Origin: Bdellovibrionales bacterium
GTDB lineage: Bacteria; Bdellovibrionota; UBA1018
Assembly: GCA_018266355.1 (NCBI GenBank)
Contig: JAFEAP010000029.1
Location: 400,909-464,908, forward strand
Reading direction: 5' to 3'
Length of the DNA stretch: 64,000 bases
Positions 54,047-57,683 of the stretch are shown one piece after another. A model generated the notes under the pieces. The model was given only the letters and a program-made list of their open reading frames with translations. It was not told where the DNA came from and did not search any database. Within the stretch, counting starts at the first letter, position 1. Each line of letters begins with the position of its first letter. A program made the translations under genes and the position numbers.

Positions 54047-55089
54047 CCGGTCCGTCGGACCTCGGGTTCTGGGGTTTCGTGCGAGGGCTCGTTTTCCTCT
54101 TCGACGCCGAGAGCGTGCACCACTTTTTCGCGAAAAAACTCCGATTCCTCGGCTCGAACGCCTTCGGGCGGTGGTGTCTGCGCCGGATTTCGGGGACGAA
54201 CCTCGCGAAAGCGCGGCACCCCGTGAATATCGGCACGCTCACGTTCCGGAACCCGATCGGACTCGCCGCCGGCTTCGATAAGGAAGGCACGATGATCCTC
54301 GCGCTGCCTCACCTCGGGTTCGGTTACGTCGAGGTCGGCACGGTCACGCCCCGTCCGCAGCCCGGAAACGCGAAACCGCGGCTCTTTCGCGACGCCGATC
54401 GCTTCTCGCTCTTCAATCGGATGGGATTCAACAGCCCCGGAGCCGAAGAAGTGGCGAAAAACGTCACGCAGGCGCGTGCGAGCGGATGTCTGCCGGAGGA
54501 TTTTCGCATCGGGATCAATCTCGGGAAGAATAAAACCACCTCAGCGGAGGATGCGCCCGCCGATTACGGGCTTGCGGTGCGTCCGTTCGACGGTCTCGCG
54601 GACTATTTGGTGGTGAACGTGAGTTCGCCGAACACGCCGGGACTTCGCGAGCTTCAAACGGTCGAATCCATTACGAAAATCGTCGGCGCGATTCGCGCGG
54701 AGATGACGAATTGGAAGGCGAAGCCGCCGATCTACTTGAAACTCGCGCCCGAAGTGCGCGGAGAAACGCTCGAACACATCCTCGCCGCGGAAAAGAATCT
54801 CGGAATCGACGGGTGGGTCCTCACGAACACGCTCGGGGGATATTGGAAGGGCGGGAAGGGCGGTTGGAGCGGCGGAGCGTTAGGAACGCTCGGAAGAGAC
54901 TGCCTCGAGCGCGTGCGCGGTCGCAGTCGCCTGCCAATCCTCTCCGTCGGCGGCATCCTCGAGCGACGCGAAGTCGAGACTCGACTCGCGCGAGGAGCGA
55001 ACCTCGTCCAAGTCTACACGGGGTGGATCTACTTCGGTCCGCGCTGGATCGCGCATTTGCTGAAAGCGTTCACGGGCGAAAAGACCTGA
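54043..55089 (+). CDS. pyrD: Dihydroorotate dehydrogenase (quinone), class 2
   Basis: GTG overlaps the rsmB stop (GTGA). N-terminal membrane-association helix. FMN/orotate motifs (GFDKEG, NVSSPNTPGLR, active-site Ser class-2 type). Confidence 0.8.
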   Translation: MTGPSDLGFWGFVRGLVFLFDAESVHHFFAKKLRFLGSNAFGRWCLRRISGTNLAKARHPVNIGTLTFRNPIGLAAGFDKEGTMILALPHLGFGYVEVGTVTPRPQPGNAKPRLFRDADRFSLFNRMGFNSPGAEEVAKNVTQARASGCLPEDFRIGINLGKNKTTSAEDAPADYGLAVRPFDGLADYLVVNVSSPNTPGLRELQTVESITKIVGAIRAEMTNWKAKPPIYLKLAPEVRGETLEHILAAEKNLGIDGWVLTNTLGGYWKGGKGGWSGGALGTLGRDCLERVRGRSRLPILSVGGILERREVETRLARGANLVQVYTGWIYFGPRWIAHLLKAFTGEKT

Positions 55090-55167
55090 GCATCGGTCGT
55101 CGTGAACTTTTAGAAATCCGCTTTTTTGCGGGGGTTTTCAGGCGTTTTCGAACCCCTGAAAAAGGAT

Positions 55168-55198
55168 GGGCCCCGATCCGTTTCCGGAGTCGGGGCCC
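55168..55198. terminator. Bidirectional intrinsic terminator
   Basis: Perfect 9-bp GC-rich stem GGGCCCCGA…TCGGGGCCC. aaaaagga lies on one side and tatcttta on the other, giving U-tracts on both transcripts. It terminates pyrD (+) and the K-rich micro-gene (-). Confidence 0.65.
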
Positions 55199-55226
55199 TA
55201 TCTTTACTCGTTAAGAGTAAGAAGAA

Positions 55227-55298
55227 TTACTTCTTCTTTTTCTTAGCGGTCTTCTTCTTGGCCACTTTCTTCTTCGCGGCTTTCTTCTTCGTTGCCAT
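55227..55298 (-). CDS. 23-aa poly-lysine micro-protein MATKKKAAKKKVAKKKTAKKKKK
   Basis: ATG with GGAGGAA SD 6 nt upstream. 5'-UTR hairpin (GACATCGC…GCGATGTC). A sigma-70-like promoter lies upstream and the bidirectional terminator downstream. The antisense ORF 55126..55452 is implausible (poly-Phe). Confidence 0.5.
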   Translation of the reverse strand: MATKKKAAKKKVAKKKTAKKKKK

Positions 55299-55350
55299 CG
55301 CTATTTCCTCCGTTAAGACATCGCACCAAAGCGATGTCGTTATGGTTTTA

Positions 55351-55378
55351 ATGTTACCGCGATCTTTCTTGAGTGCAA
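55351..55378 (-). promoter_or_regulatory. Sigma-70-like promoter (TTGCAC-16 nt-TAACAT) for the K-rich micro-gene
   Basis: Read on the minus strand. About 55 nt upstream of the ATG. Positions approximate. Confidence 0.35.
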
Positions 55379-55448
55379 GCGTCGAAATCAAAAAAAATCA
55401 CTTTTTCTATTTTTTTTCTTGCCACCACTTTCGTGCGAAAAAGATCAC

Positions 55449-57683
55449 GTGAACGACGTCCGCGAGATCCCACCGCTCGATCCGAAAGAGAGTTTGAAGC
55501 GAAAACGCGAGCGAATCGCGATTCTCTCGCTGCTCTTCCTCTTCCTCACGCTGATGGTACTCGAGTTCCGGATCAGCCGGGTGTCGAGCACGCTCCCGTT
55601 CGTGAACTCGATCTTCTTCTTCGGGCTCGTGAACCTGAACATCATCATCCTCATCCTGCTCCTCTGGCTCGTGCTCCGGAACGTCGGGAAGCTCTTCATC
55701 GAGCGCCGCCGGAACGTCCTCGGCTCGCGCTTGAAGACGAAGCTCGTCGTTTCCTTCCTCTCGTTCTCGATCATTCCGACCCTCGTTCTCTTCGTGATTT
55801 CGGCCCTCTACATCAACACCACGTTCGACAAGTGGTTCTCGATCAAGATCCAAAACACCCTCGAAACCGCGCTCGAGATCACCCGCATCTACTACCGCGG
55901 CGCCGATCAGACGACTTCGCATTTCTCCGCTCACATCGCGAAGGGAACCGCTCAGCAACTCGCCAGCGGACGCATTAATAAAGAGAAGCTCCAAAAATAC
56001 CTCGAATCCCAGCGCGAGCTCCTCGCGCTCGACGTCGTGGAATATTATTCCGGCCCGCTCGAGGAGCGAGTGATGGCGGTGCGGGACTCCGACGAGTGGG
56101 AGCTACCGGCGCCCCGGGTCTCGCTCGACCTCCTCGACGGCGCTTTCGCGGGCTCCCCGGGCAGCGTGATCCATCACGCGGGCAACGGAGACTGGGTCCG
56201 GGCGCTCTCGCCGGTGCGTCTACCGGGCTCGGACACCGTTTTAGGCGTCGTCGTGGTCAGCCGCTACGTCCCGGTCACCCTCGTGAACAAGGTCGACGAG
56301 GTTTCGAGCGTCATCCAGGACTATAAGGACATCAACCCGCTGAAGTACCCGGTGAAGACCGCCTACTTCCTGATCCTGATCCTCATCACCCTCGTGATCA
56401 TCTTCGTCGCGATCTGGATCGGCCTCTACATGGCCCGCGAACTCACCGTCCCCGTCGAGCGCCTCGTGAAGGGCGCCCAGATGGTCGGCGCCGGGAATCT
56501 CGACACCGTGATCCAGTCCTCCGGCCACGACGAAATCGCGACCCTCGTCGAGTCCTTCAACCGCATGACCGCCGATTTGAAGGAGAACCGCGAGCGCCTG
56601 ACCGAGGCGACGCGCGACCAGGAGCGCCGGAAAATCCAACTCGAAGCCATCCTCGCGAACGTCGGCACGGGCGTGATCTCGCTCGATCAGGACGGCCGGA
56701 TCACGACGTTCAACCGCGCCGTTTCGCAGCTCCTCGAGATTTCCCCCGACCGCGCGATCGGTCGCCCCTACGCCGAAGCGCTCGTCGGCGAAGTTTCCGC
56801 CCTGAACAGCGTCTTCGAGAAGGCGATGAGCTCCTCGGCGCCTCTCCGGAGTCCGGAGGTCATGCAGGTCAATCTCAAGATCGGAGGCACGACGAAGTCG
56901 GTCGCCGCCATCGCGACCTCGCTTCCGACGGGCGCCGTCGTCGTCATCGACGATATGACCTCCCTCGTGAAGGGCCAGCGCGAGATGGCCTGGCGGGAAG
57001 TCGCCCGCCGGATCGCCCACGAGATCAAGAACCCTCTCACGCCGATCAAACTCTCCGCCCAGCGGATGCAGCGAAAACTCGGCGACCTCACCGGAAAGGA
57101 AGGCCAGCTCGTGCGGGAGTGTACCGAGACGATCATCCAGCACACCGACGAGCTGAAGCAGATGGTGAACGAATTTTCCGACTTCGCACGGATGCCGGAA
57201 GTCACCCTCGTGGCCGATTCGCTCGACGACATGATTCGCGAGACGCTTTCGCTCTACGAACAAGCCCACGCCGACGTGCGATTCGTTTATCGCCCGGACT
57301 CGGAACTGCCCCGTTTCGAATTCGACCGCGACCAGCTGAAACGGGTGTTCATCAATCTTTTCGACAACGCCGTCGCGGCGCTGCGCGAGAAGAAAGGCGA
57401 GAAGCGCATCGAGATCACGACGAATTACCACGCTTCGCTGAAGATCGCCGTGCTCGACTTCCGAGATAACGGCGCCGGGATGCCCGAAGACGTGAAATCG
57501 CGCGTATTCGAACCTTATTTCTCGACGAAAAGCGACGGAACGGGCCTCGGCCTCGCTATTGCCAAACGCATCGTGGCCGACCATCATGGATTCATCCGGG
57601 TCCAGTCCTCGGCCGGCGAGGGCACCCAGTTCACCATCGAGCTTCCGACCGAGCTGCCCACGATGGCGAAGCCGAAGGTTTAA
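55449..57683 (+). CDS. ntrY: NtrY-like sensor histidine kinase (TM region, HAMP, PAS, HisKA, HATPase_c)
   Basis: H-box RIAHEIKNPLTPI. N, G1, G2 boxes (DNGAGMP, GTGLGLA). Start uncertain: GTG 55449 is preferred because a T-rich tract abuts the TTG at 55419, with TTG 55485 also possible. Confidence 0.75.
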   Translation: MNDVREIPPLDPKESLKRKRERIAILSLLFLFLTLMVLEFRISRVSSTLPFVNSIFFFGLVNLNIIILILLLWLVLRNVGKLFIERRRNVLGSRLKTKLVVSFLSFSIIPTLVLFVISALYINTTFDKWFSIKIQNTLETALEITRIYYRGADQTTSHFSAHIAKGTAQQLASGRINKEKLQKYLESQRELLALDVVEYYSGPLEERVMAVRDSDEWELPAPRVSLDLLDGAFAGSPGSVIHHAGNGDWVRALSPVRLPGSDTVLGVVVVSRYVPVTLVNKVDEVSSVIQDYKDINPLKYPVKTAYFLILILITLVIIFVAIWIGLYMARELTVPVERLVKGAQMVGAGNLDTVIQSSGHDEIATLVESFNRMTADLKENRERLTEATRDQERRKIQLEAILANVGTGVISLDQDGRITTFNRAVSQLLEISPDRAIGRPYAEALVGEVSALNSVFEKAMSSSAPLRSPEVMQVNLKIGGTTKSVAAIATSLPTGAVVVIDDMTSLVKGQREMAWREVARRIAHEIKNPLTPIKLSAQRMQRKLGDLTGKEGQLVRECTETIIQHTDELKQMVNEFSDFARMPEVTLVADSLDDMIRETLSLYEQAHADVRFVYRPDSELPRFEFDRDQLKRVFINLFDNAVAALREKKGEKRIEITTNYHASLKIAVLDFRDNGAGMPEDVKSRVFEPYFSTKSDGTGLGLAIAKRIVADHHGFIRVQSSAGEGTQFTIELPTELPTMAKPKV

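Follow-up and report, generated by a model that had tools for sequence, protein, structure and literature searches.

The closest described counterparts of the element considered here, an unannotated micro-gene for a 23-residue oligo-lysine peptide, are ribosomal microproteins, histone H1-like lysine- and alanine-rich proteins, and the leader peptides of attenuators. The micro-gene lies on a contig of a Bdellovibrionales bacterium (Bdellovibrionota; GenBank assembly GCA_018266355.1, contig JAFEAP010000029.1, positions 400,909 to 464,908); this whole stretch of 64,000 nucleotides (nt), with a G+C content of 62%, is called the window below. The ribosomal microproteins bS22 and eL41 comprise 25-33 amino acids, are very basic, and form a single helix that is wedged between helices of ribosomal RNA (rRNA). 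Together with bL37, bTHX, and bL38, bS22 (found in Mycobacteria and Bacteroidota) and eL41 share several properties with the micro-gene product: they are 20-50 amino acids long, strongly basic, restricted to particular lineages, and either missed by annotation or labelled hypothetical. In particular, bS22 of F. johnsoniae consists of 30 amino acids and has an isoelectric point (pI) of 12.7; both bS22 and eL41, annotated as hypothetical proteins, were found only by cryo-electron microscopy (PMC7797042; PMC12123416). bL38 is encoded beside ribosomal protein genes (PMC7797042).

The second group consists of H1-like Lys/Ala (K/A) repeat proteins, namely, the C-terminal domains of AlgP and PhaF, as well as Hc2 and BpH1. 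In these proteins, as in the micro-gene peptide, Lys and Ala dominate and are arranged in short tandem repeats, the number of repeats varies between relatives, Lys rather than Arg is used despite a G+C-rich genome, and the repeats are predicted to be disordered. However, H1-like proteins comprise from 100 to more than 350 amino acids and usually include a folded domain, whereas the micro-gene peptide (23 amino acids; 15-33 among relatives) consists of the repeats alone and is encoded by its own transcription unit; moreover, it matches no curated family model in Pfam or NCBIfam. AlgP-type Lys/Ala-rich tails bind both DNA and polyphosphate granules (PMC9239181). A functional analogy may also be drawn with protamines and polyamines, which are small, abundant polycations that neutralise the charge of nucleic acids and compact DNA, though protamines are Arg-rich and eukaryotic, and polyamines are metabolites.

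Attenuator leaders (trpL, hisL, pheL, and thrL) and the polycysteine sensor open reading frames (ORFs) of mycobacteria resemble the micro-gene in another respect: they are tiny ORFs that are rich in the codons of one amino acid and are closely followed by a terminator. In contrast to attenuator leaders, in which such codons form a short run, Lys codons fill the whole micro-ORF, and its non-Lys residues are constrained.

A conserved gene for an oligo-lysine peptide

The micro-ORF comprises 23 codons and a stop codon and encodes the peptide MATKKKAAKKKVAKKKTAKKKKK; its first half reads ATG GCA ACG AAG AAG AAA GCC GCG AAG AAG AAA GTG and its second half GCC AAG AAG AAG ACC GCT AAG AAA AAG AAG AAG TAA. 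The product has a mass of 2600 Da (2469 Da without Met), a pI of 11.1, and a charge of approx. +14. It is built from four KKK-x-A pentads and contains 61% Lys, 22% Ala, 9% Thr, and 4% Val, with 14 of the 23 codons specifying Lys. When ORFs of 10-70 amino acids were considered in all six frames of the window, no other was found to contain at least 35% Lys. The G+C content decreases locally to 37-48% at the micro-gene. The four adjacent genes use Arg more often than Lys (155 versus 120 of 2016 codons), whereas the micro-ORF contains 14 Lys codons and none for Arg. Because it is the sole Lys-rich ORF of the window and is restricted to Lys amid Arg-preferring neighbours, the explanation that the micro-ORF arose by chance is effectively excluded.

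To assess conservation, pyrD loci (encoding dihydroorotate dehydrogenase) were taken from 64 species genomes and checked for the micro-ORF. In 28 Bdellovibrionota loci (one of them clipped by a contig end), the micro-ORF is convergent to pyrD and lies within approx. 300 nt of it, and in three further Bdellovibrionota loci it is located approx. 1 kb away. The micro-gene is kept even though the pyrD genes at these loci are only 42-79% identical to that of the window. It is absent from all 15 non-Bdellovibrionota pyrD loci that were fetched, and five more Bdellovibrionota loci are truncated. The same arrangement was observed at loci recovered independently of pyrD (L066, L068/69, and L099). The first-pass annotation of the window, which was made from the sequence alone, had proposed a complete stand-alone unit (promoter, hairpin in the 5' untranslated region (UTR), Shine-Dalgarno (SD) sequence, ORF, and terminator) for a 23-residue poly-lysine peptide between pyrD and ntrY, and had named conservation at syntenic positions as a check. 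All five components are present and conserved, and synteny with pyrD is borne out by the 28 convergent loci and the three more distant ones. The assignment to the interval between pyrD and ntrY applies more narrowly: the upstream neighbour is always ntrY in the clade of the window, but a flagellin gene cluster takes its place in the Bdellovibrio-like clade. Since there are two different upstream neighbours, the conserved partner of the micro-gene is pyrD together with the shared terminator rather than ntrY. In B. bacteriovorus HD100, pyrD (Bd0715) abuts Bd0717, so the gene context differs there (gene table of PMC3627812). Two loci labelled as Lysobacteraceae (L040) and Nitrosovibrio (L042) contain a pyrD of the Bdellovibrionota type, the micro-ORF, and its promoter; these contigs are probably mis-binned.

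Several features of the aligned copies point to selection at the level of the peptide. All 32 copies (29 distinct DNA sequences and 22 distinct peptides) are intact and begin with a common ATG behind AACGGAGGA or AATGGAGGA; one of these two SD sequences is found in almost all related loci, and a reduced purine core (GGAGA or GAGGAG) in a few. Among the 29 distinct DNA sequences, column entropy is 1.08 at codon position 3, compared with 0.30 at position 1 and 0.44 at position 2; third positions are thus approx. threefold more variable than the others. In particular, all four synonymous codons are used for Ala2 and all four for Thr3, and substitutions occur freely at the fourfold-degenerate positions of Ala, Thr, and Val codons without altering the encoded residue. 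The wider family was described from 28 distinct Bdellovibrionota peptides, comprising the 22 from pyrD-linked loci and variants from over-extended gene calls and from a metagenome scan (see below). After Met, these peptides contain 63% Lys, 21% Ala, 12% Thr, 2.4% Val, and 0.6% Arg; Asp, Glu, Gly, Asn, Gln, Leu, Phe, Tyr, Trp, and Cys do not occur in any of them, and the spacer residues between the Lys runs are restricted to Ala, Thr, and Val. Codons for Asp, Glu, and Gly are one mutation away from GCN, and Arg, which is favoured in G+C-rich genomes, is one mutation away from AAG. Because residues that are so easily reached are nevertheless absent or rare, both the Lys residues and the small spacer residues are under selection. 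The length of the peptide ranges from 15 to 33 amino acids among relatives and changes in steps of whole repeats (pentads); given its shortness and repetitive sequence, the peptide would not fold. An in-frame upstream extension of the ORF to 54 amino acids (TTG start, from the ORF list) shows no conservation as a protein sequence, and the recurrent 'LTEEI' of over-extended gene calls results from in-frame translation of the SD. Comparative evidence demonstrates that the gene and its signals are real and that its peptide is under purifying selection, and the same conservation predicts that the micro-ORF is transcribed and translated.

The suggestion that such a gene would be unannotated proved correct, as the gene caller used for the source contig had skipped the ORF, and an exact look-up of ten peptide variants in a collection of 15 billion proteins found none on record. 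When the over-extended ORF of 54 amino acids was used as a homology query, only nine calls were retrieved, all of them over-extended and either unnamed or designated 'hypothetical protein'. The peptides have no match in Pfam or NCBIfam even at E <= 10, a negative that is weakened by the bias filters applied to low-complexity sequences, and a PDB sequence search returned no chain at E <= 10. Rfam yielded nothing at the gathering score in the whole window and only chance-level matches at E <= 10 between 55050 and 55480. A full-text literature search covering the peptide motifs, small lysine-rich proteins of Bdellovibrio, and Lys leader peptides retrieved nothing relevant. The peptide resembles known lysine-rich nucleic-acid binders in composition and differs from each of the named families in the features examined for membership. 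The micro-gene represents a new, phylum-wide family of small proteins that is part of a broader unannotated class.

Signals of the transcription unit

The sigma-70-like promoter proposed by the first-pass annotation is supported by comparison with relatives but not by likeness to the consensus. A generic sigma-70 scan detected no promoter above threshold at the micro-gene, and the TTGCAC/TAACAT pair agrees with the consensus at 7 of 12 positions. When relatives are aligned on the -10 hexamer, however, they exhibit the pattern TTG[AC][TA]C, exactly 16 nt, and TAACAT. The 16-nt spacer is found in 29 of 29 distinct loci, the TTG of the -35 hexamer is invariant, and TAACAT is exact in 26 of the 29 loci, with a close variant in the remaining three. 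A single copy of the motif CTTG-N18-GTAACAT is present in the window (0 expected). Each related locus contains one copy of its looser form TTG-N19-TAACAT, in every case at the micro-ORF, and only 3 of 120 unrelated loci contain this form. In 28 distinct relatives, the 45 nt upstream of the -35 hexamer are 53-91% A+T and include A/T runs of 7-20 nt, and this tract may function as an UP element; the hexamers themselves are the putative promoter of the micro-gene, as judged by their conservation. An inverted repeat, CTTGCACTCAAG, extends over the -35 hexamer and the spacer (55357-55379, minus strand), with equivalents in L005, L008, L010, L017, and L023; its variants include CTTGAT-N10-ATCAAG in L008 and CTTG-N14-CAAG in several loci. 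This repeat resembles an operator to which a dimeric regulator of the micro-gene might bind.

The first-pass annotation had also described a UTR hairpin adjoining the SD, and this feature is supported. In the window, the arms of the stem-loop are GACATCGC and GCGATGTC (as RNA, GACATCGC-UUUGGU-GCGAUGUC). The hairpin contributes -14.1 kcal/mol to the fold of the UTR, with z = -5.8 relative to dinucleotide shuffles, and the whole predicted transcript of approx. 185 nt has a fold z of -6.8 against shuffles. Among relatives, the folds of 23 of 29 UTRs exceed 95% of the corresponding dinucleotide shuffles in stability (median z = -3.1). The sequence of the hairpin differs between clades, but the hairpin itself is nearly always present. 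RNAalifold applied to a MAFFT alignment of the UTRs detected no structure, the hairpins being out of register in that alignment. A covariance model was therefore built from six in-register UTR sequences and used to align 24 loci. In this alignment (A4), 94% of cells pair, and all eight base pairs of the stem have changed on both sides. Moreover, double changes are found in 44 cells, whereas shuffles yield 13.8 and none of 500 attains 44, and slid partners pair in 26-62%. These covariation figures are somewhat inflated because the alignment was fitted to the structure; independent single-sequence folds agree with them. In such folds, the SD is predicted to be unpaired in most loci (19 of 28). 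Because the stem never sequesters the SD, it would serve as a 5'-end stabiliser or a protein-binding site rather than as a translational switch.

The 3' end of the unit comprises a pyrimidine tract and an intrinsic terminator. The first 10 nt past the stop codon are on average 86% pyrimidine (31 loci), and this tract is predicted to pair with the last Lys codons, placing the stop codon UAA in a hairpin loop. The duplex between the tract and the ORF tail has an energy of -7.3 kcal/mol, compared with -2.5 kcal/mol for control windows (Wilcoxon p = 1e-6); shuffled pyrimidine tracts reach approx. -4 to -5 kcal/mol, so the pairing effect is partly one of composition. A G+C-rich hairpin with a T run is located 3' of the micro-ORF in every related locus. 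The proposal that this terminator is bidirectional and shared with pyrD is plausible for most relatives, in which the stem lies between a symmetric A run and T run and would thus act in both directions; in the window, however, the pyrD side is weaker, with a weak T tract and the 3' flank UAUCUUUAC. The convergent spacer between pyrD and the micro-ORF is 137 nt long in the window and contains three tandem stem-loops. Two of these are small extra hairpins (55118-55160, plus strand; CCGC-UUUUUU-GCGG and GGGGUU...AACCCC) that precede the main terminator. The features of the unit and its two neighbours are listed in Table 1. The micro-gene is flanked on one side by rsmB and pyrD, with pyrD convergent and its stop at 55089, and on the other by the divergent ntrY and ntrX; the start codon of ntrY is GTG rather than TTG.

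Table 1. Positions in the window of the micro-gene, its predicted signals, and the adjacent genes
Feature	Position	Strand	Basis
Upstream A/T-rich tract, UP-element-like	55385..55420	-	Sequence and relatives; also within the divergent ntrY upstream region
-35-like hexamer TTGCAC	55373..55378	-	Conservation in 29 distinct loci
-10-like hexamer TAACAT, 16-nt spacer to -35	55351..55356	-	Conservation
5'-UTR stem-loop, 8 bp and 6-nt loop, SD left single-stranded	55317..55338	-	Folds and covariation
Shine-Dalgarno GGAGGA, 7 nt 5' of ATG	55306..55311	-	Sequence and relatives
Micro-ORF, ATG, 22 codons, and TAA	55227..55298	-	ORF intact in 32 of 32 loci
Post-stop pyrimidine tract UUCUUCUU and small hairpin	55206..55226	-	Fold and relatives
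Intrinsic terminator, G+C-rich hairpin (55198..55168), then U run CCUUUUUC	55159..55198	Serves both strands (predicted)	Fold
pyrD (dihydroorotate dehydrogenase), convergent neighbour, outside the unit	54049..55089	+	Pfam DHO_dh, 1.8e-58
ntrY (sensor kinase), divergent neighbour, outside the unit	55449..57683	+	Pfam NtrY_N/HAMP/PAS/HisKA/HATPase_c

Similar micro-ORFs in other lineages

Metagenome contigs were scanned with a DNA pattern for KKK[A/V]AKKK[T/A/V]AKKK, which matched at least 120 stretches. Among the matches listed, the repeat occurs inside proteins of 100-600 amino acids, both as tails and as bodies, and there are also many stand-alone K/A micro-ORFs of 16-62 amino acids with strong SDs and terminators, on contigs of 32-70% GC. 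Several groups of these micro-ORFs carry conserved promoter and UTR sequences of their own and are thus separate lineages. Their neighbours include uvrA, ribonucleotide reductase, rpiA, an EVE-domain gene, and RNase E/G.

Two genomic contexts recur among the matches listed. In three contigs that are AT-rich and lack SDs (L067:538-606(+), L074:8222-8317(+), and L079:1607-1714(-)), a K/A micro-ORF is located directly 3' of rplU-rpmA and 5' of a PolX-like gene. The L067 peptide, MATKKKAAKKKTAKKKVAKKKK, is near-identical to that of the window. The 70 nt upstream are conserved among the three contigs and contain the promoter-like sequence TTTG ... TAnnTTTT; judged by this promoter type, the contigs probably belong to Bacteroidota. 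In the second context (L073:1531-1632(-), L093:1553-1711(+), L134:7593-7661(+), and L154:3694-3762(-)), ORFs of 22-52 amino acids adjoin lysA, the gene for diaminopimelate decarboxylase, which was called by TIGR01048 (equivalog level, above cut-off). The ORF lies upstream of lysA in L073 and L093, with a full terminator including A and T flanks in between, and downstream of it in L134 and L154. Of roughly fifteen lineages, these contigs represent at least two that are unrelated to each other. The chance of adjacency to lysA in two independent lineages is very low (approx. 1e-5 to 1e-4, as a rough, informal estimate). These micro-ORFs could be Lys-responsive leaders, or their position could reflect co-location with lysine supply. 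There is no lysA within the window.

K/A micro-ORFs were also observed in two G+C-rich lineages (58-67% GC), one represented by L100, L109, L155, L184, and L189, and the other by L132, L139, and L152; their products are MAAKAKKAKKKVAKKKAAKKK and MAAKKKAAKKKAAKKKKQ-like, an example being L184:5955-6020(-). Each of the two lineages has a highly conserved promoter and a structured 5' UTR of its own. They constitute two independent families of this type of gene.

Candidate functions of the peptide

The function that we place first, with about even confidence, is that of a free, abundant, and disordered polycation that exerts bulk electrostatic effects on DNA, RNA, or polyphosphate. The sigma-70-type promoter and its A/T-rich tract would give rise to a monocistronic transcript of approx. 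185 nt, whose 5' stem-loop would probably stabilise the mRNA while leaving the near-perfect SD free. Translation would then yield a 23-residue peptide of four KKK-x-A pentads, with a charge of approx. +14 and without Arg or acidic or bulky residues, which could bind, neutralise, or condense polyanions such as chromosomal DNA, rRNA and ribosomes, or polyphosphate; nucleic acid, ribosomes, and polyphosphate had also been conjectured as binding partners by the first-pass annotation. It would thus be a stand-alone counterpart of the Lys/Ala-rich tails of histone H1, AlgP, and PhaF, and presumably also of the bacterial H1-like proteins Hc2 and BpH1. Here, we infer the level of expression, the polyanion target, and the roles of the hairpins. 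Variation in length by whole repeats is compatible with a function governed by charge and length, not by a fold. A polycation is favoured because the inability to fold, the pentad steps in length, and the exclusive use of Lys are properties of H1-like tails. The match to such tails in K/A/(T,V,P) composition and in short tandem repeats supports the same conclusion, and the recurrence of stand-alone K/A micro-ORFs in many unrelated lineages, among the matches listed, also counts in its favour. Several observations weigh against it. Likeness between low-complexity sequences is no proof of homology to H1-like proteins, and searches of Pfam, NCBIfam, and PDB gave no match. The strict use of Lys over Arg would also fit a sensor of Lys codons, and the neighbourhood of lysA or rplU-rpmA in other lineages points to lysine economy or to the ribosome more than to the nucleoid. 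Moreover, the Lys codons also constitute (ARN)n motifs of the Hfq type, so some of the conservation could reside at the RNA level. Finally, the micro-ORF is absent from the fetched pyrD flank of 13 Bdellovibrionota loci.

The main rival, which we regard as unlikely, is that the product is a lineage-specific ribosomal microprotein of the bS22/eL41 or bL38 type, bound at a defined rRNA site. Its length, pI, and charge (23 amino acids, 11.1, and approx. +14) fall within the size and charge range of bS22 and eL41, the expression signals look strong (a perfect SD and an UP-like tract), and the near-identical peptide encoded 3' of rplU-rpmA in the three SD-less, probably Bacteroidota, contigs would be consistent with a ribosomal role. 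However, the rplU-rpmA-linked copies have promoter-like sequences of their own, and in the window and its relatives the gene is located outside ribosomal protein operons, next to pyrD/ntrY or to flagellin genes. Known ribosomal microproteins (bS22, eL41, bL37, bTHX, and bL38) have fixed, non-repetitive sequences that contain Arg as well as Lys and are suited to a defined pocket in the rRNA, whereas the micro-gene peptide is a repetitive, length-variable, Arg-free pure pentad repeat of 15-33 amino acids, which would be difficult to explain if it occupied a defined pocket; in addition, it matches neither a ribosomal protein model in Pfam or NCBIfam nor a PDB chain (E <= 10). It has also been considered that translation of the 14 Lys codons is itself the function, such that ribosomes stalled when Lys-tRNA is scarce alter mRNA structure, termination, or decay. 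The share of Lys codons (61%), the strict exclusion of Arg, the terminator close behind the ORF, the ability of the conserved pyrimidine tract to pair with Lys codons, and the four K-rich micro-ORFs adjoining lysA (L073, L093, L134, and L154) are all compatible with such a lysine-supply sensor. Nevertheless, we find it improbable, since no gene in the same orientation lies downstream in the window or at any Bdellovibrionota locus (the next gene is the convergent pyrD), the window contains no lysA, and no terminator/antiterminator alternative was found, the terminator stem not competing with the post-stop hairpin. Furthermore, a pure codon sensor does not require spacers of only Ala, Thr, and Val or the exclusion of Asp, Glu, and Gly, and the terminator that separates the ORF from lysA in L073 and L093 indicates that these are perhaps separate units. 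An attenuator at the window locus, in particular, is rejected because both a downstream gene and a competing fold are lacking.

Two further alternatives concern the RNA and the opposite strand. Hfq is known to recognise (ARN)n motifs through its distal face, and the (AAR)n tract of the micro-ORF corresponds to this motif; hence, the RNA rather than the peptide might be the effector, as an Hfq- or ProQ-type small RNA (sRNA) or a sponge, with translation being secondary. A predicted transcript of approx. 185 nt with a structured 5' end, a U-tailed intrinsic terminator, and a fold z of -6.8 would suit this role, as would the tandem AAR triplets, the purine content of the sense strand (81%), and the conserved run of pyrimidines after the stop codon. 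However, almost all loci combine an optimal SD and spacing with an ATG, the SD is unpaired in 19 of 28, the ORF is never interrupted, and the substitution pattern at fourfold-degenerate positions is that of a coding sequence; moreover, neither Rfam nor the published attack-phase sRNAs of Bdellovibrio (PMC3627812) provided a match. An effector RNA is therefore quite improbable. On the plus strand, the same region could specify a short hydrophobic peptide rich in Phe and Leu, YFFFFLAVFFLATFFFAAFFFVA, such as a type I toxin. The antisense frame is uninterrupted at all loci, and because its wobble positions are common to the Lys frame, the codon-position signal cannot exclude it alone. Its openness, however, follows from the purine-rich composition alone, and in the window it would have to begin within the terminator region of pyrD and extend across the promoter. 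Among 31 distinct sequences, the first start is located between -34 and +41 codons or is absent, and is usually TTG, and no SD precedes it. Without a conserved start codon or SD, the antisense ORF is effectively excluded.

If the peptide is a polycation made at the level that its signals suggest, Bdellovibrionota would hold an abundant +14 polycation that is recorded neither in annotation nor in family databases, and the same would apparently apply to many other bacteria. Such a peptide, if abundant, would have to be considered together with the recently described bacterial histones when nucleoid compaction in predatory bacteria is modelled. Were it instead ribosomal, the parts list of the ribosome might need to include it, as with bS22 and bL38. 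Standard tryptic proteomics is expected to miss the peptide, which would be shredded by trypsin. More speculatively, and with considerable doubt on our part, stand-alone oligo-lysine micro-genes may constitute a widespread, overlooked bacterial class, comprising the Bdellovibrionota family and analogous units of many other lineages, that supplies an abundant 'peptide polyamine' pool and sets the charge balance of the nucleoid and/or ribosome; as adjacency to lysA suggests, its production would be tied to lysine supply. On this reading, the peptides could account for much of the chromatin of tiny predatory cells, whose nucleoids are hyper-compacted. The recurrence of this adjacency offers a testable link between the amino-acid composition of a product and control of the synthesis of that amino acid. 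The blind spot in which these genes lie is created by ORFs of fewer than 30 codons, which are under the length limits of gene callers, and by low-complexity masking; searches for an SD, ATG, (K3X2)n, a stop codon, and a terminator provide a recipe for finding them.

The attack-phase sRNAs published for B. bacteriovorus HD100 were compared with the micro-gene, and none of the eight (APsRNA1-7 and merRNA) matches it (PMC3627812 supplement). One of them, APsRNA5, is similar in size to the micro-gene transcript but differs in sequence (PMC3627812). APsRNA5 (HD100 605,441-605,617) was published as 'non-coding' and was reported to be 5295-fold induced; its sequence contains AAAGGAG followed by ATG and an ORF of approx. 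28 codons, MAKKHVVRKEYIWNREIRELALLTETGPP (PMC3627812 Figure S1). Thus, APsRNA5 may encode a small protein that is unrelated to the poly-lysine ORF.

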